A DNA stretch of 64,000 nucleotides from Dehalococcoidia bacterium. Lineage in GTDB: Bacteria; Chloroflexota; Dehalococcoidia; GIF9; UBA5629. This document shows, one piece after another, positions 15,781 through 37,700 of the stretch. The notes beneath the pieces are model-generated. The model was given only the letters and a program-made list of their open reading frames with translations. It ran no database searches and was not told the origin of the DNA. The translations under genes were made by a program, and so were the position numbers. The stretch covers positions 384,001 through 448,000 of the forward strand of contig JBEKIW010000002.1 of assembly GCA_050011565.1 (NCBI GenBank), in the 5' to 3' direction. Numbering within the stretch: the first letter of the stretch is position 1; each line of letters opens with the position of its first letter.

Positions 15781-17055
15781 TTAAGCTAAAGCTTTTACTG
15801 CCAGCTCTGAGACGCTACTGGCTTCGACATTCAAGCCGTAATGCTCGCTTAGATCTCCGATTTGCTGACGGCAGTTATCGCAGGAAGTGATAACGAGGCT
15901 GGCACCGGTGCGTTTAACCTGCTCAGCCTTAAGCTTCCCCGCCTGCATGCGGATATCTAACCATTCCGGCTCGGCCACCAGTCCGCTGCCGGCGCCACAA
16001 CAATAGCTCTCCAGCCGGTTTGGCGTCATCTCTCGAAAATCCTTAACCGCGGCTCGGATTACACGTCGGGGTTCGTCGAAAATACCGCCTTTACGGCCCA
16101 AATTACAGGAGTCGTGATATGTGGTCGGCTGTCCATTCTTGGAGGAATCCAAGTGTAGACGCCCTTCTCTAACGTATTCATCGAGTACTTCTAGGATGCT
16201 GCGGACCCGAAACGGAAGCTGTCCAAACCATTTGGGAGCCTCCCAGCGCATAGTGGTGTAACCATGGCCGCACTCGGTGACGATGATCTCCTCAGCTTTA
16301 AGTTTTTTGGCCTCATTGATAACACGCCCGGTGATGCGCTTGGACTTGATGCCATCGGCCAGAAAAACGGCGTAGTTGGATGACTCGAACATGCCCAGGG
16401 TCCATGATTCCTTAGCTGCATTGAACAGTATAGCCTGAGGGACAATGGTATGAGCCCCGGCCAGGGGTACGTAAAGCATGCGAGCGCCCTTCTCTTCCAC
16501 CGGTATCCGGGCTTTGGAGCTGCCCAGGCGGTCCTGGACTTCCTTTTCCAGTTCTTTAACCTGCTCCCGATATATATCGCGGAATAGTTCAGCGTTCTCT
16601 TCTTTGGCAATGGCAGCGTTAGCCAGCTCCACCAGCATTTCCGGGGCATTGCCGGTGGCGGTGGCTATCGCCCTCATTATGCGCATGATTTCGGCTGTCT
16701 CCACGCCAAAGGGGCAGGCGAAAGTGCAACGGTGGCACAGCGTACAACTGGCAAAAGCAATCTCCGCCAGCTTGGACAACATCTCGTCGGTCGTCTCTTT
16801 GACGCCCACCCACCGCGGGAATGCGCGTCCCATGGGGTCGAAAAAGCGACGGTACAATCGCCGCACCATTTCGGCACGGTAATAGGGAGTGTGCTCCGTC
16901 CGGGGATTGGACTGGTAATAGTGACAGCTTTCGGTGCATATGCCGCAGCGGACACATACCTCTAGCGCCGTCAGCACCCTGCGGTCAACCAGATTGCCCA
17001 GCATTTCCCGGGCTATGGTTAGCTTATCTTTTTTTGTTTCTACTGCGCTACTCAT
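15781..17055 (-). CDS. DsrK/HdrD-like Fe-S oxidoreductase (two [4Fe-4S] motifs plus CCG domain)
   Basis: CVRCGICTESC, CTLCHRCTFACP, TECGHG, YHDSC, YCCGAG, TSCDNC; start at MSSAVETK overlaps the upstream stop. Confidence 0.88.
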   Translation of the reverse strand: MSSAVETKKDKLTIAREMLGNLVDRRVLTALEVCVRCGICTESCHYYQSNPRTEHTPYYRAEMVRRLYRRFFDPMGRAFPRWVGVKETTDEMLSKLAEIAFASCTLCHRCTFACPFGVETAEIMRIMRAIATATGNAPEMLVELANAAIAKEENAELFRDIYREQVKELEKEVQDRLGSSKARIPVEEKGARMLYVPLAGAHTIVPQAILFNAAKESWTLGMFESSNYAVFLADGIKSKRITGRVINEAKKLKAEEIIVTECGHGYTTMRWEAPKWFGQLPFRVRSILEVLDEYVREGRLHLDSSKNGQPTTYHDSCNLGRKGGIFDEPRRVIRAAVKDFREMTPNRLESYCCGAGSGLVAEPEWLDIRMQAGKLKAEQVKRTGASLVITSCDNCRQQIGDLSEHYGLNVEASSVSELAVKALA

Positions 17056-17680
17056 GTGTCCACTCCAGTACGCCGCGGCGCCCGAAGAACAAACCGACAA
17101 AGACGCGTTCGTAAAAGAAATAAATAAAGTGTTTAATCTTGCCGAATGGCGCGTAAGCCAGCGTTATGCCGGAGATAGCCCAGAATAGGGGTAAAAAGTC
17201 CGGTTTGATAGCGGATGCGGCGCCTGCTGCCAGGAATAGTGTCACCAGCGCCAGAGAGAAATAATCATCCGGGGTGCTTAGCAGCCGCATGGTTGGGTCG
17301 CCCAATCTTATGCCGAAACCTGCCACACCCAATACAGCGCCGACGCCGAAAAGAGCCGCTAAAGAGATGCGTAGCGGCAATATCATCTGCGTCAGCCATG
17401 GGCTGGCAATAAGAAACGCTGCGGCCACGAATATGCCAACATGAATGATTATGCCGCGTATATAAGCTACCCAATGCCGTCGAGCGCTCTCCTTGGCCCA
17501 CGGAGCCATGCCCAGAGTGAAAGCATAAAGGACGCCTTGTGCTGGAGAACGTTTGACTGGCGCTTGTTCAGACTGGTAGGGCCGGCGCTGAGCAGCGACA
17601 AGAACGTATAATACGCCAATAATAAAGATGACGGCACCAACCAGTGCTATTCCGGCGGTCACCATCTGCAACATACTCAT
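17048..17680 (-). CDS. NarI/DsrM-like membrane subunit (putative cytochrome b)
   Basis: About five TM segments, H in IIHVGI, RLLSTPDDY, PFGKIKH. Confidence 0.7.
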   Translation of the reverse strand: MSMLQMVTAGIALVGAVIFIIGVLYVLVAAQRRPYQSEQAPVKRSPAQGVLYAFTLGMAPWAKESARRHWVAYIRGIIIHVGIFVAAAFLIASPWLTQMILPLRISLAALFGVGAVLGVAGFGIRLGDPTMRLLSTPDDYFSLALVTLFLAAGAASAIKPDFLPLFWAISGITLAYAPFGKIKHFIYFFYERVFVGLFFGRRGVLEWTHE

Positions 17681-17919
17681 TTCACTTTCTTGATATGGAA
17701 CCTGATTAGCTTGCCATCTCTTTCGATGGAGATAAGCTCGTTGCCGGTGCTCTTGGTCCAGGCAGGTATATCTGCCAGTACACCAGGGTCGGTGGCCGTG
17801 GCTTCTAGTACTTTGCCCACCTCCATGGTTTTAATTGCCTGGCTCACCTTAACTATCGGGATAGGGCAAAGTAGACCCTCAAGATTTAGTTTAACATCTG
17901 CATTTGTTTGTCCTGGCAT
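17677..17919 (-). CDS. TusA-family sulfur carrier
   Basis: GLLCPIPI (CPxP), ATDPG..ADIPAW; start at MPGQT after GAGGAG. Confidence 0.92.
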   Translation of the reverse strand: MPGQTNADVKLNLEGLLCPIPIVKVSQAIKTMEVGKVLEATATDPGVLADIPAWTKSTGNELISIERDGKLIRFHIKKVK

Positions 17920-17935
17920 TATTTTCTCCTCATGC

Positions 17936-18412
17936 CTATACAAATAATGTCATCTTGGAGTGGAAAGCTTTCTCCAGCATGGTAGCCACTCCGCAAGACT
18001 CTTCGGCCTCGTCAATCAGGTGTTCCGCCTTTATCTCCATGACCTGCATGCTCATCTCGCAGGGCAGGAGCTTAACTCCCAGGTCGATGGCGGTCTGCCG
18101 GAGTTCCTCCAGCGGTGTTATTTTATGTGACTTCATCATTTGTTTGAACATCCACCGGCCGATGCCCCAGAAATTGAAACGCGACGGGCCGATAGTATTG
18201 ATACCGCCCCGGTTGAGGAGGCCCATCATGCGGCCGAAGAAGCCCTGACCTGTTAGATTTCCTTTCTGTATGGCTTTTATACCCCAGAAGGTGAAAAACA
18301 TATTGGTTTCTTTGCCGGCTGCGGCAGCTCCGATGGCGATATTGAAGGCTGCCATGACCTTGTCCATGTCACCGCTAAATACGATTATGGTTACACCATC
18401 TTCTTTTGCCAT
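17936..18412 (-). CDS. DsrE/DsrF/DrsH-like (DsrE2-type) sulfurtransferase
   Basis: IIVFSGDMDK, MFFTFWG, PCEMSM; start at MAKED after AAGGAG. Confidence 0.9.
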   Translation of the reverse strand: MAKEDGVTIIVFSGDMDKVMAAFNIAIGAAAAGKETNMFFTFWGIKAIQKGNLTGQGFFGRMMGLLNRGGINTIGPSRFNFWGIGRWMFKQMMKSHKITPLEELRQTAIDLGVKLLPCEMSMQVMEIKAEHLIDEAEESCGVATMLEKAFHSKMTLFV

Positions 18413-18627
18413 TTCTGTCTCCTTCACAATTATTAATACACGTTAGATGCGGCACCCTGTACCATGGGGTGGGTGCCGTGCGCCCCCTTAACCAAACTGA
18501 CATGAATTTACCCTGCTTACACCTCCTTCATAGCGTAAACGCGCTGACCTGATATTTATCAAGGTAATTGATGACCTTTTGTTATTTCCAACTTGCGTGC
18601 GAGGCTTCCAGCCTCATCTGTCTAGCT

Positions 18628-18810
18628 TCAGCCGCCGCCGAAGGCGAACTGAGTAAAGAACCTTAACTTATCGGTAGGGCTGTCTAATTTTTCAACTTTG
18701 CCGCCACCGCAGCGGGGGCACTTCACGTTCTTATCGTCTTTCACATTATCCAGATTGGGTTTCTTAAATGTGACGCGACATTCATTACATCCGTATTCCT
18801 GGACTTGCAT
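18628..18810 (-). CDS. FmdB-like zinc-ribbon protein; possible Sec extension to 18622
   Basis: EYGCNEC...VKCPRCG; SD AAGGAG; ends GGG-TGA-AGC-TAG. Confidence 0.8.
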   Translation of the reverse strand: MQVQEYGCNECRVTFKKPNLDNVKDDKNVKCPRCGGGKVEKLDSPTDKLRFFTQFAFGGG

Positions 18811-18834
18811 TGTATATCTCCTTTAACTCTGAAA

Positions 18835-19167
18835 TTAAGCTACCAGCCTCTCGGCTAGCTGTTTGTTCTTCTCCATCCGGTCGAGCAGTATCTCATGCAC
18901 CATGTCACAGGCATCGCCGATTTTGGGGTCGCTGAGGCTGTAGTAGACACTGGTCCCTTCTCGCCGGAACTGCACCACCCCTTTGTCCCTGAGAATCGCC
19001 AGATTACGGGAGACAACCGCCTGAGGAAACTCGAGCACCCTTGCCAGCTCGCCCACAGTCGTCTCACCCTGTCGCAGCTCATCGATGATGATAAGCCGCT
19101 TGGCGTCAGCGAAGGTCTTGCATAGTTCCGCCTTTAGTGCGTAAAGTTCAAGATTGTGTCTGGCCAA
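18835..19167 (-). CDS. ArsR/SmtB-family transcriptional regulator
   Basis: AELCKTFAD.KRL.I..., VS.NLA.LR..G.V..RREG..VYY.L. Confidence 0.92.
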   Translation of the reverse strand: MARHNLELYALKAELCKTFADAKRLIIIDELRQGETTVGELARVLEFPQAVVSRNLAILRDKGVVQFRREGTSVYYSLSDPKIGDACDMVHEILLDRMEKNKQLAERLVA

Positions 19168-19194
19168 TGGGCACCTTCCTCATGGTTAATACAA

Positions 19195-19239
19195 ATATAT
19201 ATATAGACGTATATTATCATATTGTGTGGGCATTGTCAA
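19195..19239 (-). promoter_or_regulatory. ArsR operon promoter with overlapping AT-rich palindromic putative operator
   Basis: TTGACA-17-TAATAT followed by ATATA-cgtc-TATAT. Confidence 0.5.
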
Positions 19240-19266
19240 ACCACCTATCCCCGGTGGGGAAATCCC

Positions 19267-19398
19267 AAATCCTAAGCACCAAATCCTAAATAATATCAAA
19301 ATACTAATTCTCCAAATTCAGGATAGTTTATCTTTGTGCCGTTCGAATTTTGAGATTTGGATTTGTTTGATGCTTGGAATTTATTATTTATAATTTGG
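19267..19398. repeat. heptamer-based inverted repeat element, family D copy 1
   Basis: AAATCCTAAGCACCAAATCCTAAATAATATCAAAAT arm; near-identical reverse-complement arm at about 61226-61270. Confidence 0.8.
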
Positions 19399-19460
19399 GC
19401 TGCCGGGGGGATATGGTGGGCACACGAATGGTGGTATAATAGGCATCTTGGGGGAAATAG

Positions 19461-21005
19461 ATGGCCAGGTACATAATCGCCCATGATGTAGGCACCAGCG
19501 GCAATAAAGCGGTTCTGGTGGATACTAAGGGGCGCGTCCACGGTAAATGTATTGAGCCTTACAAAACGTATTTTCCGAAGCCAGGATGGGCGGAGCAGGA
19601 ACCGTCAGACTGGTGGAAGGCGGTAACGCGGACGACCAGGCTTCTCCTCGACCGGACAAATATATCTCCTAAAGACATTCTGTGCGTTACTTTCGGTACG
19701 CAGATGCTCGGCGTCATCCCCATTGACTCCAAAGGTGTGCCGCTGAGGCGTGCCATTATCTGGCTTGACAACCGCGCCGGTGAACAGGCGGAGCGGCTGA
19801 TGAGAAAATTCCTCGGACCTCGTGTCTTCGCCTTAATTGCCGGCACTGCCTTATGCGGCAAAGACGGCATGCCCAAGCTACTCTGGCTGAAAGGGGAAGA
19901 GCCTGATATTTACCACAAGATGTGTTGTTTTCTGGATACCTCGGGTTATCTTTTCTATCGCAGCACCGGCAACATGGCCATGGAGTGGACCGGCGCTTCA
20001 GTCTTCGGGCTCGACCTGAAAAAGAAAACATGGATGACCAGTATTTTCAGCTATGTCGGACTTGATACCGAGAAGCTGCCCCCGTTAGTACGATCGATCG
20101 ATAAGGTCGGTGAACTTACCAGAGAAGCTGCCAGGGAATACGGACTTTTGCCCGGCACACCGGTTATGGCTGGCGCCGGCGATGCTCCCTGCGCCGTAGT
20201 TGGCTCCGGCGCCGTCGGCGAAGGCGAAGGTCATGTTTATCTGGGAACCTCCGGCTGGGTGGGCGTGGTCACCAGGCGAATACTGCAGGGTAAATGCGGC
20301 GCCGCCACCATTCATTCGGCAGACCCCGACAAGACGTTTCTATTTGCCGAGACTGAAGCAGCCGGCGGCTGCATCCAGTGGATCGCCGACCAGTTTTACA
20401 AAGCGGAAAAAAAGGACCCGAATATACCCAATGTTTATGCTCTGATGGACGATGAGGTGGCTAAAATTCCACCGGGCTCCAATTATCTTCTTTTCACCCC
20501 CTGGATTTATGGAGAAAGAGCTCCCATTAACGATTGTTATGTCCGTGCCTCATTTCTCAACTTGAGCGCCGAGCATACCCGCGAGGATATGCTGCGTGCC
20601 GTATATGAAGGTGTGGCTTATAACATCAGGTGGATTGTGGAAATCGTAGAGAAAGAGTTCAAGTTGCCACTGCCGCAACTCAGGGTTATAGGTGGAGGCG
20701 CCAAGGGCAAACCCTGGATGCAGATAATGGCTGATGTTACCGGCAGAAAAATTGAGACCGTCTGCGACCCTCAGGAAGCTGGCGCCGTAGGTGCCGCACT
20801 GATAGCGGCGGTTGGCCTGGGAATATACCCGGACTTCGAGTCGCTGAAAAAGGTAATCAAAGTGGACAGGGTATTTGAGCCACAGCCCCGGAATTCGGAT
20901 ATTTATAATACGCTGTATGGTTCGTATCATGAAGTCTACAGTAGCTTACGTAATTTCTATAGAAGGCTGAATAAGGAGCGATTCGACAAGGCGGTGTGTG
21001 AGTAG
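19461..21005 (+). CDS. FGGY-family carbohydrate kinase (xylulokinase-like)
   Basis: AHDVGTSGNK, PGWAEQ.P.DWW, IIWLDNRA, GAGDA, YLGTSGW, GERAP, GGGAK; TG-N-TATAAT at 19432-19440. Confidence 0.93.
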   Translation: MARYIIAHDVGTSGNKAVLVDTKGRVHGKCIEPYKTYFPKPGWAEQEPSDWWKAVTRTTRLLLDRTNISPKDILCVTFGTQMLGVIPIDSKGVPLRRAIIWLDNRAGEQAERLMRKFLGPRVFALIAGTALCGKDGMPKLLWLKGEEPDIYHKMCCFLDTSGYLFYRSTGNMAMEWTGASVFGLDLKKKTWMTSIFSYVGLDTEKLPPLVRSIDKVGELTREAAREYGLLPGTPVMAGAGDAPCAVVGSGAVGEGEGHVYLGTSGWVGVVTRRILQGKCGAATIHSADPDKTFLFAETEAAGGCIQWIADQFYKAEKKDPNIPNVYALMDDEVAKIPPGSNYLLFTPWIYGERAPINDCYVRASFLNLSAEHTREDMLRAVYEGVAYNIRWIVEIVEKEFKLPLPQLRVIGGGAKGKPWMQIMADVTGRKIETVCDPQEAGAVGAALIAAVGLGIYPDFESLKKVIKVDRVFEPQPRNSDIYNTLYGSYHEVYSSLRNFYRRLNKERFDKAVCE

Positions 21006-21022
21006 ATATCCACTAATTCTTA

Positions 21023-21074
21023 TAGGGGCGAGGCTTTAGCCTCGCCCAGTGCGACCTTAAAAGGTCGCACCTAC
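21023..21074. repeat. REP-like double palindrome, family G
   Basis: GGGCGAGGCT-TT-AGCCTCGCCC and GTGCGACCTT-A-AAAGGTCGCAC; degenerate copy at about 30269-30308. Confidence 0.75.
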
Positions 21075-21144
21075 ATGAGACGATGATGAGTGATGCTAAA
21101 CAAGGGAAAGATTCGATAAGACAGTGTGTGAAGGAGGTGTTTAA

Positions 21145-22455
21145 ATGAATGGCGATGATATTTTGAGCCTGCCCATTGCCCTGCCCGACGGCGTGGATTA
21201 TGACGACTACGTTATCGGCACCTATCTGGTCTCTTATCCAGCCTCGCTGCCTCTCCCTATAATTGCGCCTTTCCTGGCTATCGAGCAGAGCACGGGGACG
21301 TGGGTGGCTGTGCCCGGCGAGACCGAGGAAGTCCGACGTCAGCATATCGCCAAGGTGGTGGGTGTTTATGAAATGCCCGACTACGAGTCCACCGTGCCGG
21401 CGAATCTACAGACCAGGCAGTGGTTCGTCCAGGTGGCTTATCCCGAGGTAAACATCGGTGAGCAGATACCCATGCTGCTGACCACAGTGGTGGGCAACAT
21501 CTCCATGGGCGGCGAAATAAAGCTGGTGGACATGCGTTTTCCGAAGAAATTCGCTGCCGGTTTCAAGGGCCCCAAATTCGGCGTCGACGGCATACGTAAG
21601 CTTCTGGGAATTCCGAAGCGACCACTGCTAAATAACATGATAAAGCCCTGCACCGGCTATACCTGCGAAGTCGGGGCTGAACTGTTTCGCAAAGCGGCCG
21701 CCGGCGGCTGCGACATCGTTAAGGACGACGAGCTTATTGCCGACGCCTCGTTCAACTCGGCGCTGGAGCGCGTCAAGCTTTATATGCAGGTTGAGAAGCA
21801 GGTCTTCGAGGAAACCGGTGAACATACGCTGTACACAGTGAATGTAACGGATAAAATACCAAAGGTCTTCGAGACTGCCAAACGCGCCGTGGAATTGGGC
21901 TGCAACGCGCTGATGATAAACTACCTGGCTGTCGGCTTTCCGGTGTTGCAGGCGCTGGCTGAAGACACCAGCCTGAATGTGCCCATACTGGCACATATGG
22001 ACGTGGCCGGCGCTCTGTACATGTCGCCTTATCACGGCATGAGCTCTCATCTGGTGCTGGGCAAATTGCCGCGGCTAGCAGGCGCCGACGTAGTTGTTAT
22101 CCCCGCCCCCTACGGCAAGGCGCCGGTAATTGACTATAAGTTCAAAAATGTTGCCCGAAACCTGTTATTCCCGCTATATAACCTGAAGCCCACGTTCCCC
22201 ATGGCATCGGGCGGCATCACCCCGTCCATGGTGCCGCAGGTGATGATGGCGCTGGGCAATGACATAGTCATAGGTTCCGGAGGCGGCATTCATGCGCATC
22301 CCCAGGGTGCCATCGCCGGAGGCAAAGCCTTCCGGCAGGCGATAGATGCTACCATGCAGGGCATTCCGCTGGCCGACTATGCCAAGGAGCATGAGGAGCT
22401 GGCGATTTCACTAAAGGAGTGGGTCGACCCGTTCAGCAGAGGAATCAGAATTTGA
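21145..22455 (+). CDS. RuBisCO-like protein (form IV)
   Basis: EQSTGTW, GPKFG, IKPCTG (K177 replaced by C), VKDDE, AHM (R295 replaced), YGK, ASGG, GGGIHAHP.G. Confidence 0.92.
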   Translation: MNGDDILSLPIALPDGVDYDDYVIGTYLVSYPASLPLPIIAPFLAIEQSTGTWVAVPGETEEVRRQHIAKVVGVYEMPDYESTVPANLQTRQWFVQVAYPEVNIGEQIPMLLTTVVGNISMGGEIKLVDMRFPKKFAAGFKGPKFGVDGIRKLLGIPKRPLLNNMIKPCTGYTCEVGAELFRKAAAGGCDIVKDDELIADASFNSALERVKLYMQVEKQVFEETGEHTLYTVNVTDKIPKVFETAKRAVELGCNALMINYLAVGFPVLQALAEDTSLNVPILAHMDVAGALYMSPYHGMSSHLVLGKLPRLAGADVVVIPAPYGKAPVIDYKFKNVARNLLFPLYNLKPTFPMASGGITPSMVPQVMMALGNDIVIGSGGGIHAHPQGAIAGGKAFRQAIDATMQGIPLADYAKEHEELAISLKEWVDPFSRGIRI

Positions 22456-22468
22456 AAGGAGCAGTAAG

Positions 22469-23686
22469 ATGTCTAAAGTTACGGTTTTAGGCGGCAGTGG
22501 TGCGGTTGGCAGCATAGCCTCGGAGACGCTGGCTTCGAGCGGTGTATTCTCCGAAGTAACGGTGGCTGATATAAATATTGCAGCCGCCAGAAAGGTAGCC
22601 GGCAAGCTAAAGGGGAGTAAGGTCTCTGCTGTCGAATTCGATGCCGATGGCCCCCAGAGCCTGAGAAAGGTAATCGGCGGCTCATCAGTGGTACTGAACT
22701 GCGTGGGTCCTTTCTACAAGTACGGGCCCACCATACTAAAAACGGTGATAGAAGCCAGAATAAACTATGTTGATATCTGTGATGATTTCGATGCTACCGA
22801 GAAGCTGCTGGCAATGGATGACAAGGCCAAGAAAGCCGGCGTTTCAGCGCTCATCGGCATGGGCAGCTCTCCCGGCGTAGCTAATATTCTGGTCAGGTTC
22901 TGCGCTGATTCCCTGCTCGACCAGGTGGAGGCGGTGGATATATACCACGCCCACGGCGGCGAAAAAATTGAAGGACCGGCGGTAGTGAAACACCGGATTC
23001 ATTCCATGCAGATAGGTATTCCGATGTTCCTCGACGGCAAATTTACTACCGTGAATCTATTTGACGACAGCGGCAAGGCATTGGAAGAGGAGGCCGAGTT
23101 TAAAGATGTCGGCACCTACAACGTCTACGGCTATCCGCATCCCGAGACAATAACCCTGCCTAAATATTTGAAGGGTTTGAAGAGGGTAACCAACCTGGGG
23201 CTGGTGCTGCCTCCGGCTTACGCCGAGCTGATAAAGGGTATGGTCAGGCTGGGCGTTACCGATGAGAAACCCATCGAAGTACAGGGCCATAAGATTGTGC
23301 CGCTGGAATTTGCCGTAGCCTATATACTTTCCCAGCGGGAGAGATTGCTGAAAGAGGCCGGGATTAACCAGCCTATGGGCTGCTTGAAGATCGTGGTTAA
23401 AGGGGTCAAGGACGGCGGCAAGAACACTTATATCTTCTCCATGTCTTCCCGGGGGCAGGGTATGGGCGAAGGCACGGGCATACCGGCCGCTATTGGCGCC
23501 ATAATTATGGGTACGGGAAAGATTACGCTGAAAGGCGTTTTGCCGCCCGAGGCCTGCGTCAACCCCATGGACCTGCTGGAGCTGGCTAAGACCAAAGTAA
23601 AGACGGTTGGCGGCAAGGGCTTCCCCATTTCCATCGAGCATATCGATAAGGACGGCAAGTCGCAGAAGTTGAACCTGTTTAGCTAG
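22469..23686 (+). CDS. saccharopine dehydrogenase-like NAD(P)-dependent oxidoreductase
   Basis: GGSGAVG, NCVGPFY, YVDICDD, GMGSSPG, HPETITLP, GVLPPEA. Confidence 0.88.
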   Translation: MSKVTVLGGSGAVGSIASETLASSGVFSEVTVADINIAAARKVAGKLKGSKVSAVEFDADGPQSLRKVIGGSSVVLNCVGPFYKYGPTILKTVIEARINYVDICDDFDATEKLLAMDDKAKKAGVSALIGMGSSPGVANILVRFCADSLLDQVEAVDIYHAHGGEKIEGPAVVKHRIHSMQIGIPMFLDGKFTTVNLFDDSGKALEEEAEFKDVGTYNVYGYPHPETITLPKYLKGLKRVTNLGLVLPPAYAELIKGMVRLGVTDEKPIEVQGHKIVPLEFAVAYILSQRERLLKEAGINQPMGCLKIVVKGVKDGGKNTYIFSMSSRGQGMGEGTGIPAAIGAIIMGTGKITLKGVLPPEACVNPMDLLELAKTKVKTVGGKGFPISIEHIDKDGKSQKLNLFS

Positions 23687-23688
23687 TG

Positions 23689-23823
23689 AAATCCCCCTTA
23701 ACCCCCCTTTTTCTAAGGGGGAGATGAATTTTTACCTTTTTCTAAGGGGGAGATAAGCTTTTACCTTTTCTAAAGGACGAAATAAACCTCTCCCTTTCGT
23801 AAAGGGAGATTGAGAGGGATTTT
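23689..23823. repeat. cluster of four CCC(C)TT...AAGGG(G) palindromic units (family A) directly upstream of the DUF559 gene
   Basis: AAATCCCCCTTAACCCCCCTTTTTCTAAGGGGGAGA ... CTCTCCCTTTCGTAAAGGGAGATTGAGAGGGATTTT. Confidence 0.85.
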
Positions 23824-23829
23824 ATTAAA

Positions 23830-24189
23830 ATGCTAACCTACAACAATAGACTGGCAAGCTATAGCCGTGAACTGAGAAAGAATATGACGGATGCCGAACG
23901 GTATCTCTGGTCTAAGGTAAGGATGCGACAAGTAGGAGGCTGCCAATTCTATAGGCAGAGAATTATAGGTGATTACATAGTGGACTTTTTTTGCCCCAGA
24001 GCAAAACTGGTAATTGAAGTCGATGGTGGCCAGCATAGTTCTGATGAGATTACCGCTGCAGATGAAGAGAGGGATGAATATTTGAAAAGCAAAGGTTTGA
24101 AAGTGATAAGATTTAATAATATTGAAGTTCTCAGGAATATTGAAGGGGTGGTGGAAAAAATACTTGAGAATATGAGGTATATCAGGTAG
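23830..24189 (+). CDS. DUF559 (Vsr-like) endonuclease
   Basis: SRELRKNMTDAE..LW..., FYRQ..IGDYIVDFFC...KLVIEVDG.QH...RD.YL...G.KVIRF.N. Confidence 0.92.
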   Translation: MLTYNNRLASYSRELRKNMTDAERYLWSKVRMRQVGGCQFYRQRIIGDYIVDFFCPRAKLVIEVDGGQHSSDEITAADEERDEYLKSKGLKVIRFNNIEVLRNIEGVVEKILENMRYIR

Positions 24190-24240
24190 CTCCCCATAAT
24201 CCTCCTCACCTTTGACTTTTGGCCTTTAAATTTTTACTTT

Positions 24241-25110
24241 ATGTCCATGACCATCCGTGAAACCATCCGCCGTCGGTTCAGCGTCCGGCATTACCAACCA
24301 AAACCGGTGCCGGAAGACATCTTAAAGGCTGTTGAAAAATCCGGTGAAACATCCCTGGCTCTGGCCGACGGCATTAAAGCCCGCTTCCACTTAATCAACG
24401 AGGGCAGGCTGGTGGCGGAGCAGATGACCTTTCAAACCGGCAGACGGTGGCTCTTCGGCTCAGCGCCGCACTTCATCATAGCCACCTCGGAGGAAAAGCC
24501 CCTGTTTATGTTGAACATGGGCTTCCGCATGGAGCAGGTGATGCTTTTTGCCACCACGCAGGGCCTGGGCACTTGCTGGATTGGCGGCCTGTTCACCGAG
24601 AAGCGAATCGGGACCTTTTTAGGATTGGATAAAGGCGAGCGCGTCATCGCCCTGACGCCGCTCGGCTATCCCGATGTCTCGTCCTACGGGCGGGCTATAC
24701 ACAGCATCGTTCACCTGGGCGGGCCGGATTCCAGGCGGAGGCAGCCTCTGGAGCAGATAGTCTTCGGCTCCCGGTGGGGTACGCCGCTTGAGACTAAGGG
24801 CAACGAGCTTCTGGAAGTTTTGGAATGCACCCGCCTGGCGCCGTCGTGGGCAAATACGCAGCCCTGGCGCTTTTTAGTGAATGGCAGGGAAATAATAGCT
24901 GTTGCCGACGCCAGCGGCAGAAACCTTTCCGTCCGCGATGGAAAGCATTATTATCGCCTCGACCTCGGCATCGCCATGGCGCATTTCTACCTGTCGGCTA
25001 AAGAGCTGGGCTGGAAAGGAAGCTGGCAGGTTACCGGCTTCGACCCGGCGCAGGTGGCTAAACAGCACGCCATTCCCGCCGGCTTTGAGGTGCTGGGGAT
25101 ATACAGGTGA
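24241..25110 (+). CDS. nitroreductase-family protein with tandem domains
   Basis: RRFSVRHY, GLGTCWIGG, RLAPSWANTQPWRF, DLGIAMAHF. Confidence 0.88.
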   Translation: MSMTIRETIRRRFSVRHYQPKPVPEDILKAVEKSGETSLALADGIKARFHLINEGRLVAEQMTFQTGRRWLFGSAPHFIIATSEEKPLFMLNMGFRMEQVMLFATTQGLGTCWIGGLFTEKRIGTFLGLDKGERVIALTPLGYPDVSSYGRAIHSIVHLGGPDSRRRQPLEQIVFGSRWGTPLETKGNELLEVLECTRLAPSWANTQPWRFLVNGREIIAVADASGRNLSVRDGKHYYRLDLGIAMAHFYLSAKELGWKGSWQVTGFDPAQVAKQHAIPAGFEVLGIYR

Positions 25111-25181
25111 TAGGCTATTCATTTTTGCAATAGCTTGCCCGTTAGGGTTATCATTGGTTACATCAAGAAGAAGAGTAAGAA

Positions 25182-25727
25182 ATGAAAAAGAAATCAATCA
25201 CCGTGGCGGTAAGCGGAGCCTTCGACCCCATACACGTAGGTCATATTGCCTACCTGCGTGAAGCGGCCAAACTGGGTGACAGGCTGGTGGTGATATTGAA
25301 CAACGACATTTTTCTGCTCAGGAAAAAAGGGTTTGTGTTCCGGCCGTTCGAGGACAGAAAAGAGATACTGGAGAACATTAAGGGTGTAGATGAGGTTATC
25401 GCGTCTATAGATGACGACCAGACAGTCTGTAAAACCCTGGAACTGCTCAAGCCCGATATATTCGCCAAAGGAGGCTATCGGACGGGCCCCGAAAATATTC
25501 CCGAAGCCGAGACCTGCCGCGCCATCGGCTGCAAGGTAGTCACCATGGTCGGCGGCGGCAAACTTCGCGCCGATGAGGAGTTGGACTCAAAGCTTAAGGG
25601 ATTTGGCAGGCACGAGGAAGGCACGGTTGAAATCGACTGCCCCTACTGTGACGACCATCCCATATTAAAAGAGAGATGTCTCCACTGCAAAGGCAAGGGC
25701 AAGGTGGATGTGGGGAAGGCGGACTAA
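25182..25727 (+). CDS. cytidylyltransferase-family (HIGH) protein with C-terminal Zn finger
   Basis: SGAFDPIHVGH, LRKKG, KPDIFAKGG; tail CPYC-x9-CLHCKGKG. Confidence 0.85.
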   Translation: MKKKSITVAVSGAFDPIHVGHIAYLREAAKLGDRLVVILNNDIFLLRKKGFVFRPFEDRKEILENIKGVDEVIASIDDDQTVCKTLELLKPDIFAKGGYRTGPENIPEAETCRAIGCKVVTMVGGGKLRADEELDSKLKGFGRHEEGTVEIDCPYCDDHPILKERCLHCKGKGKVDVGKAD

Positions 25728-25753
25728 GTTATAATCCCACGCCCGCAACGGCT

Positions 25754-26320
25754 TTACTTCTGAGTTTCTATTGGCACTCTTCGGCGATAGGCATAGCGTT
25801 TTTGCGTCCACAGGCCGGTGAAGAAGGCCCGGTTCATCAGATACCGGTTATCGGCCACACTCAGCAGGTCCTTGGAGACGCCGGTCTCGAAGTAAGCCAC
25901 CTCGACATGCTTACCCATGTTCTTTACCGCTTGAAGTGCATAGGCGAAGTCGGCGTCACCGCTCACCAGCACTGCCACGTCGTAGAAGTCGTTCCAGGCA
26001 AAATACAGCAGGTCCGTAGCCAGCATGATATCTATGCCCTTCTCCACCGGTATTCCCTGTGACACCTTCATGCCTCCCAGCCGAATCTCCAGATACGGTG
26101 TCTTGCGCAGTATATCGAGGAATTCCTGTTGGTCTCGATAGCCGTCGGGCTTTTGTGTCGGGTCCTGTAAGACGTTGTAATAATATGTCCGGAACAATCG
26201 CCTGGCGCCGCATAGCTTATTGGAAAATTCAGAGAAGTTGATGTTGTGATGCCCGAAGCTACCCCGCAGACCGTGATATAAATTGCTGCCGTCTATGAAA
26301 ATGGCTACTCTGTCGTCCAT
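25754..26320 (-). CDS. NYN/LabA (DUF88) domain protein
   Basis: FIDGSNLY, EKGIDI.LA.D, LVSGDADF. Confidence 0.92.
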   Translation of the reverse strand: MDDRVAIFIDGSNLYHGLRGSFGHHNINFSEFSNKLCGARRLFRTYYYNVLQDPTQKPDGYRDQQEFLDILRKTPYLEIRLGGMKVSQGIPVEKGIDIMLATDLLYFAWNDFYDVAVLVSGDADFAYALQAVKNMGKHVEVAYFETGVSKDLLSVADNRYLMNRAFFTGLWTQKRYAYRRRVPIETQK

Positions 26321-26397
26321 TACATCCTCCCTTAAGACCGGCTAAAAGCCTTTGATAATTGCATTATAACACCGAATATGGGGAGACGTATATGAGT

Positions 26398-26594
26398 GAA
26401 AGTCAAAGGTTAAAAGCAAAAAATAAAAGGTTCACGTCAAAATTTGATAGTTATTTTTGATTTTTTACATGTACCTTTGACTTTTGGCCTTTAACTTTTA
26501 ACTTGTTGACCCCCGCTCATTCTGAGCTTGTCGAAGAATGTACCTTTTTGACTTTCGACTTGTACCTTTGACTTTTGGCCTTTAACTTTTAACT
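26398..26594. repeat. heptameric TTT(G/A)AC(T/C) inverted array (family C) enclosing a family E unit
   Basis: TTTGACTTTTGGCCTTTAACTTTTAACTT repeated; related tracts at 24210-24240, 30416-30573, 32676-32757, 62451-62650. Confidence 0.8.
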
Positions 26595-32796: not shown

Positions 32797-32861
32797 TAAC
32801 TTTTCCACCATAAGTGGTAAAATATACGCAAACTTCCACACCACCAACGGGAGACCAAACC

Positions 32862-34619
32862 TTGTTACTCGAAATAAGAGTCAGGAACCTGGGAATCATC
32901 GAAAGCATAGACTGGAACCTGGGCCGCGGGCTGAACGTCATCACCGGCGAGACAGGTGCCGGCAAATCACTGCTCATCGACGCTGTGGAGGCGCTGCTGG
33001 AAGGGAAAGTAGGCGAGGAGGTTATCCGCCATGGCAGCGACGAAGCCCAAATCGAAGGTATTTTCGCCTTGCCCGATAATGAACACCTGGCGCAGCTCAG
33101 GGAACTCCTGGACGAAAATGGCTTGAAATCAGATGAGGATAATCTGGTTATCAGTTGCGAATCCAAAAGGCATGGGCGCGGCATTGTCAGGGTCAACGGA
33201 CGTGCGACCACCAGAGGCATTCTGCGCCAGATCGGACGCTTGCTAATCGATATTCACGGCCAGAGCGAGCACCTGTCTCTACTCGATACGAAGTATCACC
33301 TGGATTTCCTCGATGCCTATGGCCATACCATGGAGCTGCGGCACAGCTTCACCGCTAAAGTGGCAGAGCTTCATAAACTGGAGCAGGAGCTCAAGGCGCT
33401 GGTTGAAGCCGAGAAAGATGCCGCTCGCCGCCAGGAATTCCTGCGCTTCCAGCTCGATGAGATAAGAAAAGCTGAGTTGCGTCCCGGGGAGGAGGAAGAG
33501 CTGGAAAAAGAACGAACTCTCCTGTCTTCGGCTGAGCAGCTGAAGGCAATGTCTTATGAAGCCTACCAGGCTCTAGGCAAGGAAGATGCCTCACGTGGTT
33601 CAGCACCGGCTCTGGACAAATTGAATGAAGCACTGGCAGTTATGAAGAAGCTCGTCGAGCTGGACCCCACGCTTAGCCAGCAATTGAGTTCTCTCGAAGA
33701 TGCCGTGTACCGGGTCGAGGAGGCAGCGCGGGAAATTAGCGCTTACAGCGGAAGGTTGGAGCAGAATCCGGAGCGGCTGGAAGAGGTGGAGTCGCGTTTT
33801 GAGGTCATAAAAGGTCTAAAACGGAAATACGGACAGACCATCGCTGACATACTGCTCTATTTGGAGAAGACTGAAAAAGAGCTGGAGTCAATCTCGCGTT
33901 CTTCAGAGAGGCAGGCTGAGCTGGAGAAGATGCGCTCTGAGCTCAAGGTGGAGATGGGCAGGATAGCCTCCGAGCTCTCCACAGCGCGCTCAGCGACGGC
34001 GGAGAAGTTAGTCGCCGAGGTGAAGAAGGAACTCCATGATTTGAGCATGTCGCAGGTTGAATTCGAGGTGTCCCTAACCCGGGAGGAAGCTGAAGACGGT
34101 ATTCCTCTACCTGACGGCAAAACTTACGCCTTTAACAGCGAGGGAGTTGATGTGGTTGAGTTCATGGCTTCGACCAATCCCGGAGAGCCTGTAAAGCCCA
34201 TAACCAGGATTGCTTCTACAGGTGAAATCTCCCGTTTTACGCTGGCGCTGAAATGCGCTCTGTCGGAGGTTGATAGTATCCCCATTCTCATTTTCGACGA
34301 GATAGACATCGGTGTGGGGGGACGGAGCGGCGAAATAATAGGCAAGAAGCTCTGGACACTAGCTCAGAATCGCCAGGTGATTTGCGTAACTCATCTTCCC
34401 CAGATCGCTGCCTATGCCGATGCCCATTACCAAGTTCACAAAGAAGAGTCAGGCGCTCGGACTGTCAGCCTGCTTCAGCCGCTTGAAGGCGAGGAACGTA
34501 CCAGGGAGATTGCCGTCATGCTCGCCGGCCCGCAGTACACTGAAGTTTCCCTGACCGACGCCCGCGGCGTGATGCACAGGGCACAGTCCTGGAAACAAGA
34601 CCACGGCAAGATATCCTAA
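32862..34619 (+). CDS. recN: DNA repair protein RecN
   Basis: TGETGAGKSLL, IDIHGQ.EH, NPGEP...ASTGE.SR..LA, FDEID.GVGG, VTHLPQIA; TTG start after GGGAG. Confidence 0.97.
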   Translation: MLLEIRVRNLGIIESIDWNLGRGLNVITGETGAGKSLLIDAVEALLEGKVGEEVIRHGSDEAQIEGIFALPDNEHLAQLRELLDENGLKSDEDNLVISCESKRHGRGIVRVNGRATTRGILRQIGRLLIDIHGQSEHLSLLDTKYHLDFLDAYGHTMELRHSFTAKVAELHKLEQELKALVEAEKDAARRQEFLRFQLDEIRKAELRPGEEEELEKERTLLSSAEQLKAMSYEAYQALGKEDASRGSAPALDKLNEALAVMKKLVELDPTLSQQLSSLEDAVYRVEEAAREISAYSGRLEQNPERLEEVESRFEVIKGLKRKYGQTIADILLYLEKTEKELESISRSSERQAELEKMRSELKVEMGRIASELSTARSATAEKLVAEVKKELHDLSMSQVEFEVSLTREEAEDGIPLPDGKTYAFNSEGVDVVEFMASTNPGEPVKPITRIASTGEISRFTLALKCALSEVDSIPILIFDEIDIGVGGRSGEIIGKKLWTLAQNRQVICVTHLPQIAAYADAHYQVHKEESGARTVSLLQPLEGEERTREIAVMLAGPQYTEVSLTDARGVMHRAQSWKQDHGKIS

Positions 34620-34743
34620 TATAAGAATATATTATTAATAGTTTAGGGATACACAAAATATATCTAAATAATACTGGATATATAGCTATATATATCGTAT
34701 AAGATAGACAGCAACTATATTCTGGCTATCTCGAGTATTTATT

Positions 34744-37700
34744 TCATATCTTTCCGAGCTTTCGATCAGGTAGTAATAACCTGGGGTCACTTTGTTCAAT
34801 TGCCATCATTTGGCAGCAGCGTTGTCTTTCTACACGATCCGATTCATATAACATAAGCCTATGGAAGACAAGGCGCCTTAATATGGCTCTTGCCACGTTA
34901 TTTTTCTCGATGTCTTTGAGCAATTCGGATAAATTATCTAAAGGTAAGCTCGATTGGCAATCCAACTTAATACTTACATCAATAAGGCGAACAGATATTA
35001 GATGACCATATTTGTCAAAAATACTCTTATAAGTGGGGTATAGTTTCTCGGTTCCAACATATTTTGCGACGCCATAAACCCCAGCAAGTGAAACTTGCAT
35101 CGTCATAATAAAAGCAACAGCTTTTGCGGCTATCTCTAATTGAGAATCTGTTGGCCAGCGGCGTCTATCCGGAGGCAACTTAAGCAATTCCTTATCCAAT
35201 CTGTATCTCATATTATCTTTAACTTCACTAACAAATTCCTTAATAGTATTGGCATAGAACGTTAGAGTTTCCTTGAGGACCCTTAAACCTAATAAATAAC
35301 TTTCCTGAACTAAAGAATATTTATCCTGCCCTTCCCAAGAAGTCGCGAAATTCTTGACAATCTGTCCCATTATCCGGATCATTTTGAAGGCTATCGTAAT
35401 AGATTTAAACTGTTCGTCAATATTTTCATTATCTCTAGTATATTGAATATCTATTTTGCGTTCTCTTCTTTTGTTATCTTCCCGTTTTTGTATTTCCTCT
35501 CGAATTTCTCTTGGTTTTCCTTTAGGTAATTTAAGGGTCAGGTCGAAGCCCTCTTTATTTATAAAATATAGATCCGTATCTAGATCAGTGGGTTCATTAT
35601 TGGAAAACATTTGTTTCGCCGTATACAATAAAATTTCTCGAATGTAAGGATTCTCGGACAGGTAACTTAGAAAAAGCAAAATACTCTCGTTTTCTTCGAT
35701 ATCTATATTATTAACCAAATCAGATATTATATTTTTAACCTGCTTCTCTTCCGAAGGTCTCTGCAATCGTATATTTAATGCCCTGGCAACAAAATAATAA
35801 TGGATGCAAGGATACCTATACTCGATATAATCATTTGATGGTATAAGAATATTTGCTGATGTAAGATCCACAATCAAATCATCGTAAGGCAAATCTTTAT
35901 ATCTAAGTGAGAACTTTTCTAGATATGATTTATGAAATATATAAAATTCTTGAGGAGTTATTCTATTTATTCTATTTTGAAACATCTCAAAGGAAAGTTC
36001 GGATAGGTATCTATATTTTGCATTTAGGTCAGATATTTTCCTTGGTGATTTATGTAAGGAAGTTGTTATAAGCCACTCATAAAAAAAGCCGAAGGAGCCT
36101 CTATCTTCGCCAAATGGTGTAGGTATCCCGCCAACATCACTTTCGGTGGATTGTGCGATAGTGAGTATATAAAAGGGATAAGACGGGGCGAGGCTAGGTC
36201 TCAATATCGCTTCGGCTTTTTCCTCTACCTGCTTGACCTCATGTTCTAGTTGAATCTCATCGATAACATCTTCCCGTCCTAACAAAAGCCATTTCTCAAT
36301 AAGATTACTTCTGGCAGCGCTACCGAGCTCAGATAACCCTAGTCGCCTGCAGGAGAGTAAAAAGTCATTCCGTTCCGTCTCGATAATATCTTGCACGGAA
36401 ATAATATTGGATGACGAAATAAGGGTAGTTCCAAATTGCCGGTCAATATAATCGAAAAGATTCAGTTTCGCTTTTCTACTTAGGATTGCTTCTTGGAGAT
36501 CATCGAGAATGAGTGCCCTTTTACTACTTTCTAACATCCAAAAATCGTCACGATATTCAGGACCATATTCTTTTTCAAAAGCTTCGCCAAAAAGGCGCAT
36601 GAGTTTTTCAGGGTTTCCTGTATTAATACTTTTACCATCAATCCACAATGGCACTACGTTTTTATCCTTATATTTTTTGAACATAATCTTTAGAAGAGAA
36701 GTCTTACCAGCGGATTCCGGCCCGAATAATAATATTCTATTGTTAGCCAACAAATATTCTAAAGCTCTATCGGAACTAATTAAATCGGTTTCTAATTTTT
36801 CAGATATATCCTCAAGATCTGGAAATAAGTATATGTCTTCAATATTTAGGTCCTTTTTTCTAGGATGGCTAAAAGGAACGCCAGGTGCGCTAATAAAATC
36901 TGAAAAAGACTTTTTAAGTGTAAATATATCTTGTCTAAGCACCCTACTTCGCGGAATATCTACCCATTCGAATTCCTCCGCTTTATATATAGTATTATTC
37001 CAAACATGCATAGTGTATTTCATCTTACGATCAGAAACATCAAGTAATATGGTATTAAAGGTGCTCTCCTCGCCACCTTGCAATTCACCACCTTCAATAT
37101 ATTGACGAGTTTCTCCACGTAAATATTTTGTCTCATGATACGAAGCAGCATGTTCATGACCTGTAATTATTATATTGGAGTTAAATTCAATCATTTGGCG
37201 AAATGCCTTCGAAGCCTCGGCTTGAATCCAATTATATGGATGATGCATAACTGAGAACACCAAATCAAACGAACTATCCCTGAGATTGTGTTGAACAAAT
37301 TGTAATGGAAATAGGATATAATCTACTCGTTTATCAGGTAATGACATCCAAGCAGTGTTGTAACATTCGAACTTGAGCCTAATATTGTCGCTAATGGAAA
37401 AATTCCGCTCCAAGACAAACCTTTCACGTCCGTGTTTGATTTCTATGGACTGAATTTTTGCTGACCATCGGAAAAAGTTTTGCTGAGGTTCAACGCAGCG
37501 TAATAAAAGCGCCTCTTCATTCATCAGTTGGTGATTTAATTTGATTTCTTCAACGAGTCGTTCTCGTTCTTTATCATGTTCTTTTACATCGAAGCAACAA
37601 TCATGATTACCGGGAACTATAATATAGTAAATATGTGCGGATTCTTTCGCTAACCTGATCTTCTTTTCCAGCTCAGTGAAAAACAATTGCGCTATTTTAT

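Follow-up and report, generated by a model that had tools for sequence, protein, structure and literature searches.

The stretch of Dehalococcoidia DNA analyzed here (64,000 nucleotides, hereafter the window; positions 384001-448000 of contig 2 in a genome of 2.0 Mb that is 99.2% complete) carries a three-gene module that is real, conserved, and uncharacterized. Genes for an FGGY-family carbohydrate kinase, a form IV RuBisCO-like protein (RLP), and a saccharopine-dehydrogenase-like oxidoreductase stand in an operon-like layout; the RLP has a distinctive active-site pattern and falls in a clade of its own, and the genes are co-conserved in bacteria and archaea. We propose, at a little under an even chance, that this one operon is an accessory, horizontally mobile module of anaerobes in which an amine would be converted to a carbonyl, a hydroxyl phosphorylated, and the product enolized or isomerized by the RLP. 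The three genes are as follows.

19461-21005, plus strand: FGGY-family carbohydrate kinase, XylB-like, 514 residues (Pfam FGGY_N 176.8 bits and FGGY_C 111.6 bits, above their cut-offs).
21145-22455, plus strand: form IV RLP, 436 residues (Pfam RuBisCO_large 154.3 bits, cut-off 30.1; RuBisCO_large_N 36.9 bits, cut-off 20.7).
22469-23686, plus strand: saccharopine-dehydrogenase-like NAD(P) oxidoreductase, 405 residues (Pfam Sacchrp_dh_NADP 66.9 bits, cut-off 25.1; Sacchrp_dh_C 45.5 bits, cut-off 31).

An earlier reading of the window, made from the sequence alone, had placed the three open reading frames (ORFs) at these same coordinates and called them an operon; the ORFs, their Pfam domains, and the recurrence of the set in other genomes bear this out. 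The three are co-directional, with 139 bp between the kinase and RLP genes and 13 bp between the RLP stop codon and the start of the dehydrogenase-like gene, and a Shine-Dalgarno-like purine run precedes the start codon of each. Both FGGY domains place the first protein among the FGGY carbohydrate kinases, the N-terminal NADP-binding and C-terminal domains place the third in the saccharopine dehydrogenase-like family, and both RuBisCO domains, together with K193, D195, and E196, place the second in the RuBisCO large-chain superfamily. It is the sole RuBisCO-family gene of the genome.

Profile scores and tree placement put the window RLP outside the CHARACTERISED kinds: it is neither MtnW, DeepYkr-type, OiaX, nor true RuBisCO. 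It scored under every NCBIfam equivalog cut-off: as MtnW, 382.5 bits on NF007095 (cut-off 409) and 349.1 on TIGR03332 (cut-off 513.6); as form III RuBisCO, 258.3 on TIGR03326 (rubisco_III, cut-off 497.45); and as the apionate-pathway RLP OiaX/OiaC, 193.7 on NF042437 (cut-off 700). The assignment to MtnW was rejected also on Asn118, which stands where MtnW-type proteins have Lys, and on a position outside the MtnW clade; that to form III on the replacements K177C, R295M, H298A, and H327V; and that to the DeepYkr RLPs on a separate clade and on the absence of a cupin (the methylsulfurylase gene expected next to such an RLP) among the ten ORFs around the RLP gene. The best solved relatives of the protein are MtnW structures (2oek, 299.6 bits; 2zvi, 288.9; 3fk4, 288.0), while the Photo-type RLPs 1ykw and 2qyg gave 199.4 and 191.0 bits and 3qfw, which we take to be RLP1, gave 94.0.

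An exhaustive search of representative proteins returned 2115 RLP relatives at an E value of 0.001 or below, and 102 of the 150 listed, each of 370-480 residues, were aligned with the window protein. FastTree on this alignment and a subsequent IQ-TREE analysis of 81 rows gave the same picture. The latter comprised the window protein, 19 representatives, and 61 RLPs from the loci described below, thinned to less than 82% mutual identity; RLP ORFs shorter than 380 residues were left out, as were seven loci repeating contigs already covered. In the IQ-TREE phylogeny the window RLP lies in a separate clade of 27 rows (SH-aLRT 100) drawn from Chloroflexota, Actinomycetota, Syntrophia, Asgard archaea, Bathyarchaeia, and Desulfurococcaceae. 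The MtnW-type clade has eight rows (SH-aLRT 99; its anchor P0153 scores 634.1 bits to 2oek), and a DeepYkr-like pair forms a clade of its own (SH-aLRT 100; its anchor P0234 scores 260.2 bits to 3qfw); these two and the window clade all lie within a superclade of 68 rows (SH-aLRT 100). Within the 27-row clade, 19 rows have a kinase in the locus and 18 a putative amine enzyme, the three types of which, described below, are interleaved. In public annotations these RLPs go under the names "2,3-diketo-5-methylthiopentyl-1-phosphate enolase" and "ribulose 1,5-bisphosphate carboxylase," each of them probably erroneous.

The active site was compared over 21 canonical columns, defined by form-III-like representatives that carry every canonical residue (8/8). 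Clade counts refer to the 26 locus proteins besides the window's, and the spinach numbering and residue roles are those that we take to apply to the columns of the window RLP. The relevant segments are the following.

21283-21303, plus strand: N-domain motif E47-Q-S-T-G-T52-W53 (equivalents of E60, T65, and W66; E and T in 26/26 of the clade, W in 24/26).
21496-21498, plus strand: Asn118 (equivalent of N123; the column of Lys98 in Geobacillus kaustophilus MtnW, by pairwise alignment to 2oek).
21643-21651, plus strand: K167-P-C169 (K175 kept, K177 replaced by Cys; Cys in 26/26).
21721-21732, plus strand: K193-D-D195-E196 (equivalents of K201, D203, and E204, the carbamylation Lys and Mg2+ ligands; invariant in the clade).
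21994-21999, plus strand: H284-M285 (H294 kept, R295 replaced by Met; Met in 24/26).
22096-22119, plus strand: V318 to K325 (H327 replaced by Val, in 24/26; loop-6 Lys equivalent to K334 kept, in 26/26).
22207-22287, plus strand: S355-G-G357 and G380-G381 (S379, G380, G381, G403, and G404, the proximal phosphate-binding glycines; from alignment and translation).

The window RLP keeps the canonical residue at 15 of the 21 positions (E60, T65, W66, N123, K175, K201, D203, E204, H294, K334, S379, G380, G381, G403, and G404) and replaces six (T173M, K177C, R295M, H298A, H327V, and L335A; codons checked). Its clade does much the same: E60, T65, N123, K175, K201, D203, E204, H294, K334, G380, and G381 are invariant (26/26), W66, S379, and G403 are each retained in 24/26 and G404 in 21/26, and the replacements recur as Met for T173 (26/26), Cys for K177 (26/26), Met for R295 (24/26), Ala for H298 (20/26), Val for H327 (24/26), and Ala for L335 (23/26). 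The eight MtnW-type proteins have Gly at E60 (8/8), Lys at N123 (8/8), Pro at R295, Leu at H327, Ser at K334 (7/8), and Ala at G380. The K334 column holds Arg in the DeepYkr-like pair and Arg or Ser in the other form IV representatives sampled; the E60-K334 pair retained in the window clade is unusual among the RLP groups sampled.

By this pattern the clade combines a RuBisCO-type enolization apparatus and an intact proximal phosphate site with an apolar pocket at the second-phosphate (distal) site, lost through the replacement of R295, H298, and H327. Under the established enzymology of RuBisCO, an apolar distal pocket beside a kept proximal site would imply a monophosphorylated 2-keto substrate with a neutral far end. 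Lys98 of G. kaustophilus MtnW was reportedly identified by Imker and colleagues in 2007 as the general base of the enolase, and the residues of the window clade suggest that the carbamate, and not an MtnW-type lysine, abstracts the proton. The sequence-only reading had listed as kept the KDDE motif, K175, H294, the loop-6 Lys, and the SGG/GGG glycines, had noted Cys at K177 and the loss of R295 and H327, and had concluded that the protein is not a CO2-fixing RuBisCO; its inference of an uncharacterized pathway presupposed a position outside the characterized MtnW and Oia clades. The residues are as it described them; the K177C, R295M, H298A, and H327V replacements and the rubisco_III score agree with the non-carboxylating assignment, and the NCBIfam scores and the clade phylogeny with the placement.

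We scanned one genome per species and found an RLP relative in 445 of 481 pattern-matching stretches; the best 80 (RLP identity 72-97%) are referred to as the close loci. A kinase gene is present in 77 of these, and the three misses have 318 bp or less of upstream sequence. All 70 full-length kinase matches (70/70) lie upstream of the RLP gene on the same strand, with a gap of at most 61 bp in 50/70. The dehydrogenase-like gene follows the RLP gene in 49/80. Since it recurs in dozens of species, the three-gene arrangement is far from what chance would give. Two of the loci (L036 and L037) are views of a single 21.6-kb contig with identical coordinates in opposite orientation; the contig looks like either an inverted duplication or an assembly artifact of palindromic form.

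What stands in the third position when the dehydrogenase-like gene is missing bears on its role. Of the 31 close loci without it, 19 have a class III aminotransferase, of two unrelated types (27-29% mutual identity): 14 are glutamate-1-semialdehyde-aminomutase-like (296.4 bits, cut-off 398), and five are most like the archaeal acetylornithine/aspartate aminotransferase family. An aminotransferase and the dehydrogenase-like gene never occur together, either in the 49 close loci (0/49) or in 72 further loci, and the switches between them are scattered over the RLP tree. Characterized relatives of all three enzyme types, which are not homologous to one another, interconvert C-N and C=O groups. 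The suggestion of the sequence-only reading that the substrate is an amine gains support, because the place of the dehydrogenase-like gene is taken only by class III aminotransferases (0/49 versus 19/31) and the two are never found together. The interpretation of that reading is supported in part: its remaining elements, namely a sugar or polyol as the amine's carrier, oxidative cleavage of the C-N bond, and the sequence cleavage, kinase, RLP, are hypotheses. The window genome has no orthologue of either aminotransferase type; its best matches, 40% and 35% identical, are probably housekeeping enzymes.

Beyond the close loci, a profile scan gave 79 new loci, 72 of them on new contigs, for which neighbors were taken within about 7 kb. 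Where the RLP is at least 50% identical (34 loci), the kinase is found in 13, the dehydrogenase-like gene in 6, an aminotransferase in 10, either amine enzyme in 16, both in none, and the kinase together with an amine enzyme in 12; among the 38 below 50%, 14 have an FGGY kinase and 3 an aminotransferase. The trio of dehydrogenase-like gene, kinase, and RLP was found in Bathyarchaeia (L107, where a major facilitator superfamily [MFS] transporter and a class II aldolase accompany it), Thorarchaeota (L116 and L135), another archaeon (L147), and Actinomycetota (L118 and L124). The archaeal-type aminotransferase joins the kinase and RLP in Baldrarchaeota (L108), Thermoflexales, and Anaerolineales, and the aminomutase-like type does so in Syntrophaceae, Smithellaceae, and Desulfomonilia. 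One Anaerolineales operon (L056) runs MFS transporter, aminotransferase, kinase, zinc alcohol dehydrogenase, RLP. In a Desulfurococcaceae archaeon (L087; RLP 47% identical) the order is shuffled to RLP, kinase (35%), class II aldolase, unknown gene, and class III aminotransferase, the last 50% identical to the Anaerolineales enzyme, with a Liv-type ABC transporter upstream, and the block is kept in a second archaeon. Uptake genes are thus present in some loci (MFS transporters in L056, L107, and L141; the ABC transporter in L087), as are class II aldolases (L087, L088, L107, L138, L141, and L078).

Several of these loci differ in composition. In Baldrarchaeota (L108:2466-7891), the genes overlap at their ends, and one for a HisC-type class I/II aminotransferase (345.2 bits, cut-off 276.55) stands between that for the class III aminotransferase and that for the kinase, with the RLP gene last; a class I/II aminotransferase related to the HisC-type one lies near the RLP gene in Promethearchaeota loci without a kinase. 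Clostridial loci, which form a separate RLP clade less than 50% identical to the window protein with a similar module, contain a TetR regulator, an FGGY kinase, an aminomutase-like aminotransferase, the RLP (43-45%), and an MtnX-like HAD-IB phosphatase (L158:3077-8949 and L165:3367-8993). In the cultured organism Clostridium thailandense (L122:4057-10554), an RLP gene (44%) is accompanied by a SorC-type sugar-binding regulator, an FGGY kinase (30%), and a short-chain dehydrogenase, a gene content that makes the locus a polyol-style version of the kinase-RLP arrangement.

Taking the dehydrogenase-like gene as the starting point gives a similar association. A scan with an alignment of six such proteins kept 80 loci, 77 of them new, 58 with archaeal titles and 19 others. 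The archaeal loci, mostly from Thor-, Hermod-, Heimdall-, Hel-, and Promethearchaeota, have a kinase in 48 cases (within 300 bp in 40) and an RLP within 6 kb in 24; in four of the ten without a kinase the sequence extends downstream for about 1 kb or less. Both kinase and RLP are present in 16 of the 19 others. The dehydrogenase-like proteins of the window and of the Asgard loci are 53-59% identical, and the kinases 33-40%. In one locus titled Deltaproteobacteria (L241:2690-7215), the dehydrogenase-like protein is 85% identical to that of the window, the RLP 56%, and the kinase 37%, which suggests either that the third gene was recently exchanged by itself or that the bin is chimeric.

Within the class, 101 evenly sampled genomes, each at least 80% complete, include four with an orthologue at an E value of 1e-100 or below: the window genome, both others of its family (2/2), and one of two from the neighboring family. 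One genome of the same family (G016) has two RLP copies (C6:7670-8962 and C12:13706-15004), 76% and 75% identical to the window's, and an RLP copy in another genome (G071:C44:43792-45093) has an in-frame TAA. The patchy occurrence suggests an accessory function, and patchiness within lineages combined with a spread across domains is what would be expected of a mobile one. The interpretation of the sequence-only reading required the three genes to be co-conserved. They are so for the kinase (77/80), for the dehydrogenase-like gene in 49/80 close loci, and for the trio in Bathyarchaeia, Thorarchaeota, and Actinomycetota, but co-conservation is not universal, the third gene being lineage-specific and the kinase present in only 13/34 of the more distant loci.

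We infer the substrate class, the catabolic direction, the order of the first two steps, and the exact RLP reaction from these data, and the resulting account is tentative as a whole. The substrate would be a small hydroxylated amine-bearing compound, for example an amino-sugar, amino-polyol, or ketosamine. The saccharopine-dehydrogenase-like enzyme would use NAD(P)+ to convert its C-N group to a carbonyl via an imine, a job that the class III aminotransferase of other lineages would do by transamination. The XylB-like FGGY kinase would phosphorylate a terminal primary hydroxyl with ATP, and these two steps could come in either order. The RLP would then hold the single phosphate in its proximal site, bind Mg2+ through carbamylated Lys193, Asp195, and Glu196, and remove the proton next to the carbonyl as in the first step of RuBisCO, unlike MtnW with its Lys98. 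Reprotonation of the enediolate would give an isomer or epimer usable by central metabolism. A possible exit would lead from a ketose 1-phosphate to a class II aldolase, an enzyme encoded twice elsewhere in the window genome and beside the module in some lineages.

Several observations weigh against this account. No transporter is present among the annotated ORFs of the window's own locus. The Pfam scores of the third protein are modest, and it could be a plain alcohol or polyol dehydrogenase instead. Twelve of the 31 close loci without the dehydrogenase-like gene also have no aminotransferase (three are cut within 150 bp of the RLP gene), the kinase and amine enzyme are found in only 13/34 and 16/34 of the more distant relatives with at least 50% identity, and in several Promethearchaeota loci whose flanks are complete, the kinase and all three amine enzymes are absent from the vicinity of the RLP gene. 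Related genomes are not independent, so the locus counts overstate the number of events. The remaining points concern methionine salvage. The window genome has MtnA (454.5 bits, cut-off 279) and MtnP (317.4 bits, cut-off 274.85), encoded about 76-82 kb upstream on the same contig; both exceed their cut-offs in four of five other module-bearing genomes; and the partner families (kinase, class II aldolase family, Clostridial MtnX-like HAD phosphatase, and aminotransferase) mirror the methionine-salvage set of Bacillus, the phosphatase scoring 94-100 bits, below the MtnX cut-offs.

These points feed the chief rival, which we nonetheless consider unlikely: a variant, oxygen-independent salvage of the S-adenosylmethionine by-products 5'-methylthioadenosine or 5'-deoxyadenosine. 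The RLP would act on a 5-substituted ribulose 1-phosphate or a diketone, the aminotransferase or dehydrogenase-like enzyme would make the final amino acid from a keto acid, and the FGGY kinase would feed in free ketose. Such a role has precedent in the pathways of MtnW and the Rhodospirillum rubrum RLP, as described in PMC5893883 and PMC6302742. Salvage would fit the MtnW enolases as the closest characterized relatives (2oek at 299.6 bits; NF007095 just under its cut-off), the apolar distal pocket resembling that of MtnW, and the presence of MtnA and MtnP in a genome where neither MtnK nor MtnN was found. MtnP and MtnA would, however, give the 1-phosphate directly, leaving the linked kinase without an obvious role, and their genes lie far outside the locus. 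As the sequence-only reading had remarked, no methionine-salvage gene is adjacent; the 20 ORFs annotated in the window from 11.1 to 42.7 kb include no mtn gene (0/20). The Lys of MtnW is Asn in 26/26 of the clade, E60, K334, and G380 also differ from MtnW, and the RLP lies outside both the MtnW and DeepYkr-like clades. A search of positions 17500-26500 against Rfam found no S-adenosylmethionine riboswitch or other RNA element at an E value of 1 or below, and occurrence in 4/101 genomes of the class would be odd for a housekeeping route. The class III aminotransferase types found here, moreover, differ from the usual keto-methylthiobutyrate transaminases.

Three further explanations concern the chemistry, the direction, and the membership of the pathway. 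By analogy with RuBisCO itself and with the apionate-pathway RLPs, the RLP might carry out C-C bond chemistry instead of a simple isomerization, so that a monophosphorylated keto sugar or keto acid would be carboxylated, decarboxylated, or cleaved by hydrolysis. E60, N123, and K334 take part in CO2 addition in RuBisCO, and all three are kept in 26/26 together with the metal and carbamate residues, K334 being Ser or Arg in other RLP groups. RLP decarboxylase and transcarboxylase activities occur in apiose catabolism, according to work cited in PMC6302742. If so, the operon would contain a carboxylase or decarboxylase for a kinase-made monophosphorylated keto sugar, in an unrecognized amine-sugar pathway, and a living intermediate between isomerase-type RLPs and CO2-fixing RuBisCO. 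We regard this as improbable: K177, T173, H298, and L335 are changed, the rubisco_III and OiaX scores are far below their cut-offs (258.3 against 497.45 and 193.7 against 700), the annotated loci contain no carbonic anhydrase or carboxylate-handling gene, and residues can be retained for structural reasons such as loop closure rather than for catalysis. The pathway could instead run in the biosynthetic direction, a sugar being phosphorylated, rearranged by the RLP, and aminated at its carbonyl; the resulting phosphate of an amino-polyol or amino-sugar would go into a lipid head group, a cofactor, or a component of the cell wall. Relatives of all three third enzymes (carboxynorspermidine synthase, glutamate-1-semialdehyde aminomutase, and the acetylornithine aminotransferase family) swap aldehyde and amine, often reductively, and a HisC-type gene lies inside the Baldrarchaeota operon; histidinol-phosphate-aminotransferase-type enzymes aminate a keto-phosphate. 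To this, too, we give little credence: several lineages have MFS and ABC transporter genes and class II aldolases next to the module, which point to uptake and breakdown, the distribution within the class is patchy, and no glycosyl- or lipid-transfer gene is conserved with the module. It is very improbable that the third gene has nothing to do with the kinase and RLP genes and is, say, a gene of polyamine synthesis adjoining them by chance. Its nearest named relatives are carboxy(nor)spermidine dehydrogenases, and it is missing from 31/80 close loci; but it starts 13 bp past the RLP gene, lies within 300 bp of the kinase in 40/58 archaeal loci, is more conserved between Dehalococcoidia and Asgard archaea (53-59% identity) than the kinase (33-40%), is replaced solely by other amine enzymes, and scores 51.4 bits against 800 as a carboxynorspermidine synthase.

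The genes around the operon have no evident functional tie to it. A consensus scan gave one candidate promoter upstream of the kinase gene.

19367-19394, plus strand: promoter-like site (TTGATG-16-TATAAT, 10/12 matches), weak evidence, as the region has 12 such sites against 5.5 expected.

Downstream of the operon are genes for a DUF559 protein, a nitroreductase, and a cytidylyltransferase-like protein. The first of these (23830-24189), restriction-endonuclease-like and directly after the operon, weakly matches DpdF and a type II methyl-directed restriction enzyme in PADLOC. Upstream and divergent are genes for an ArsR/SmtB-type regulator (18835-19167), a DsrE2-like protein (17936-18427), a TmcC/HmcE-like membrane protein (17048-17680), and a CCG/4Fe-4S protein (15781-17100), a cluster (15781-19167) that looks like sulfur- or heterodisulfide-related electron transfer; the regulator is conserved in the closest relatives only (6/80 loci). 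Other neighbors conserved in close relatives, including thiolase, MaoC, and PlsY-like genes, represent local synteny and not the pathway. Farther along, GC content is low between 34 and 38 kb (0.40 and 0.376, against about 0.50 elsewhere in the window). A minus-strand gene in this low-GC stretch, at 34744-37872, encodes a protein of 1042 residues with calcineurin-like phosphoesterase and nSTAND NTPase domains that matches the candidate defense family PDC-S60 (249.1 bits), and an SMC_N/AAA ATPase gene adjoins it (32814-34619; mad3, 94.4 bits), so that 32814-37872 is probably a small defense island. Another minus-strand gene (39042-42743) encodes 1233 residues with a GH130 (mannooligosaccharide phosphorylase) domain at residues 940-1230 only, the first 900 residues having no Pfam match. 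The nearest public relatives of the window are Dehalococcoidia/Chloroflexota metagenome-assembled genomes, and near-identical DNA was found in metagenomes of peat, freshwater sediment, and wetland.

RLP clades with a known reaction are few: the MtnW enolase, the R. rubrum-type isomerase, and the apionate-pathway enzymes. The window clade occurs widely among uncultured anaerobes, Asgard archaea included, of peat, sediment, and subsurface habitats, and its active site is closer to that of RuBisCO than MtnW's is. Its partners, a kinase and one of three interchangeable amine enzymes, turn an RLP of unknown function into a testable three-enzyme pathway that bears on the evolution of RuBisCO chemistry, and they correct metabolic reconstructions in which these genes are taken for carbon fixation or methionine salvage. 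The sequence-only reading had known of no description of this combination, and our search of the literature likewise found none in which an RLP is partnered by an FGGY kinase or a saccharopine-dehydrogenase-like protein, an earlier mention in a supplementary tree or neighborhood network being possible; relatives of the window clade might already appear in the supplementary RuBisCO trees of PMC11650866 and PMC7325909.

Each component resembles a known system in part. The kinase has XylB as its best NCBIfam match (TIGR01312, 337 bits) and E. coli xylulose kinase as its best solved relative (2itm, 188.2 bits), yet it was rejected as a xylulokinase, being under the XylB cut-offs (380.25 for TIGR01312; 203.9 against 912 for NF011601), and its partner here is an RLP rather than xylose isomerase. 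The third protein shares both family Pfam domains with the carboxy(nor)spermidine and saccharopine dehydrogenases, and its best solved relatives are 4ina (85.1 bits) and the carboxyspermidine dehydrogenase 8deb (75.4 bits). It was rejected as a carboxynorspermidine synthase/dehydrogenase on its NF043000 score (the 51.4 bits given above), and it is partnered by a sugar kinase and an RLP, not by polyamine or lysine genes; an ESM Atlas search with it returned generic "saccharopine dehydrogenase family" clusters only, with no function name.

Among RLPs, MtnW of Bacillus and Geobacillus is the nearest by solved structures and profiles; it shares the superclade, K175, K201, D203, E204, H294, and the apolar distal pocket, and it acts on a monophosphate, as proposed for the window RLP. 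The latter differs in having Asn rather than Lys at N123, Glu rather than Gly at E60, Lys rather than Ser at K334, and Gly rather than Ala at G380, and in having an FGGY kinase and an amine enzyme as partners with no adjacent mtnX, mtnB, mtnD, or mtnK. The DeepYkr-like representatives have Asn in the N123 column, as does the window RLP, but are shorter (372-383 residues) and have Arg at K334 and His at E204; 3qfw scores only 94 bits to the window RLP, which also has no cupin gene beside it. RLP1 of the DeepYkr group (R. rubrum and Rhodopseudomonas palustris), a 5-methylthioribulose-1-phosphate 1,3-isomerase, isomerizes a ketose monophosphate by proton transfer (PMC5893883), and this is the type of reaction proposed here. 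Form III RuBisCO shares 15/21 canonical active-site positions with the window RLP, including E60, N123, and K334, and differs at K177, R295, H298, H327, T173, and L335 and in the rubisco_III score. The kinase of the apionate pathway belongs to the DUF1537 family, not FGGY, and that pathway has no amine enzyme; the OiaX score likewise separates the two. In the D-apiose/apionate systems and acid-sugar kinase-linked RLP contexts, nevertheless, the RLP (OiaX/OiaC in the former) comes right after a dedicated kinase in the catabolism of an unusual sugar (PMC6389311 and PMC6302742, citing Carter et al. 2018), a likeness to the layout of the window operon.

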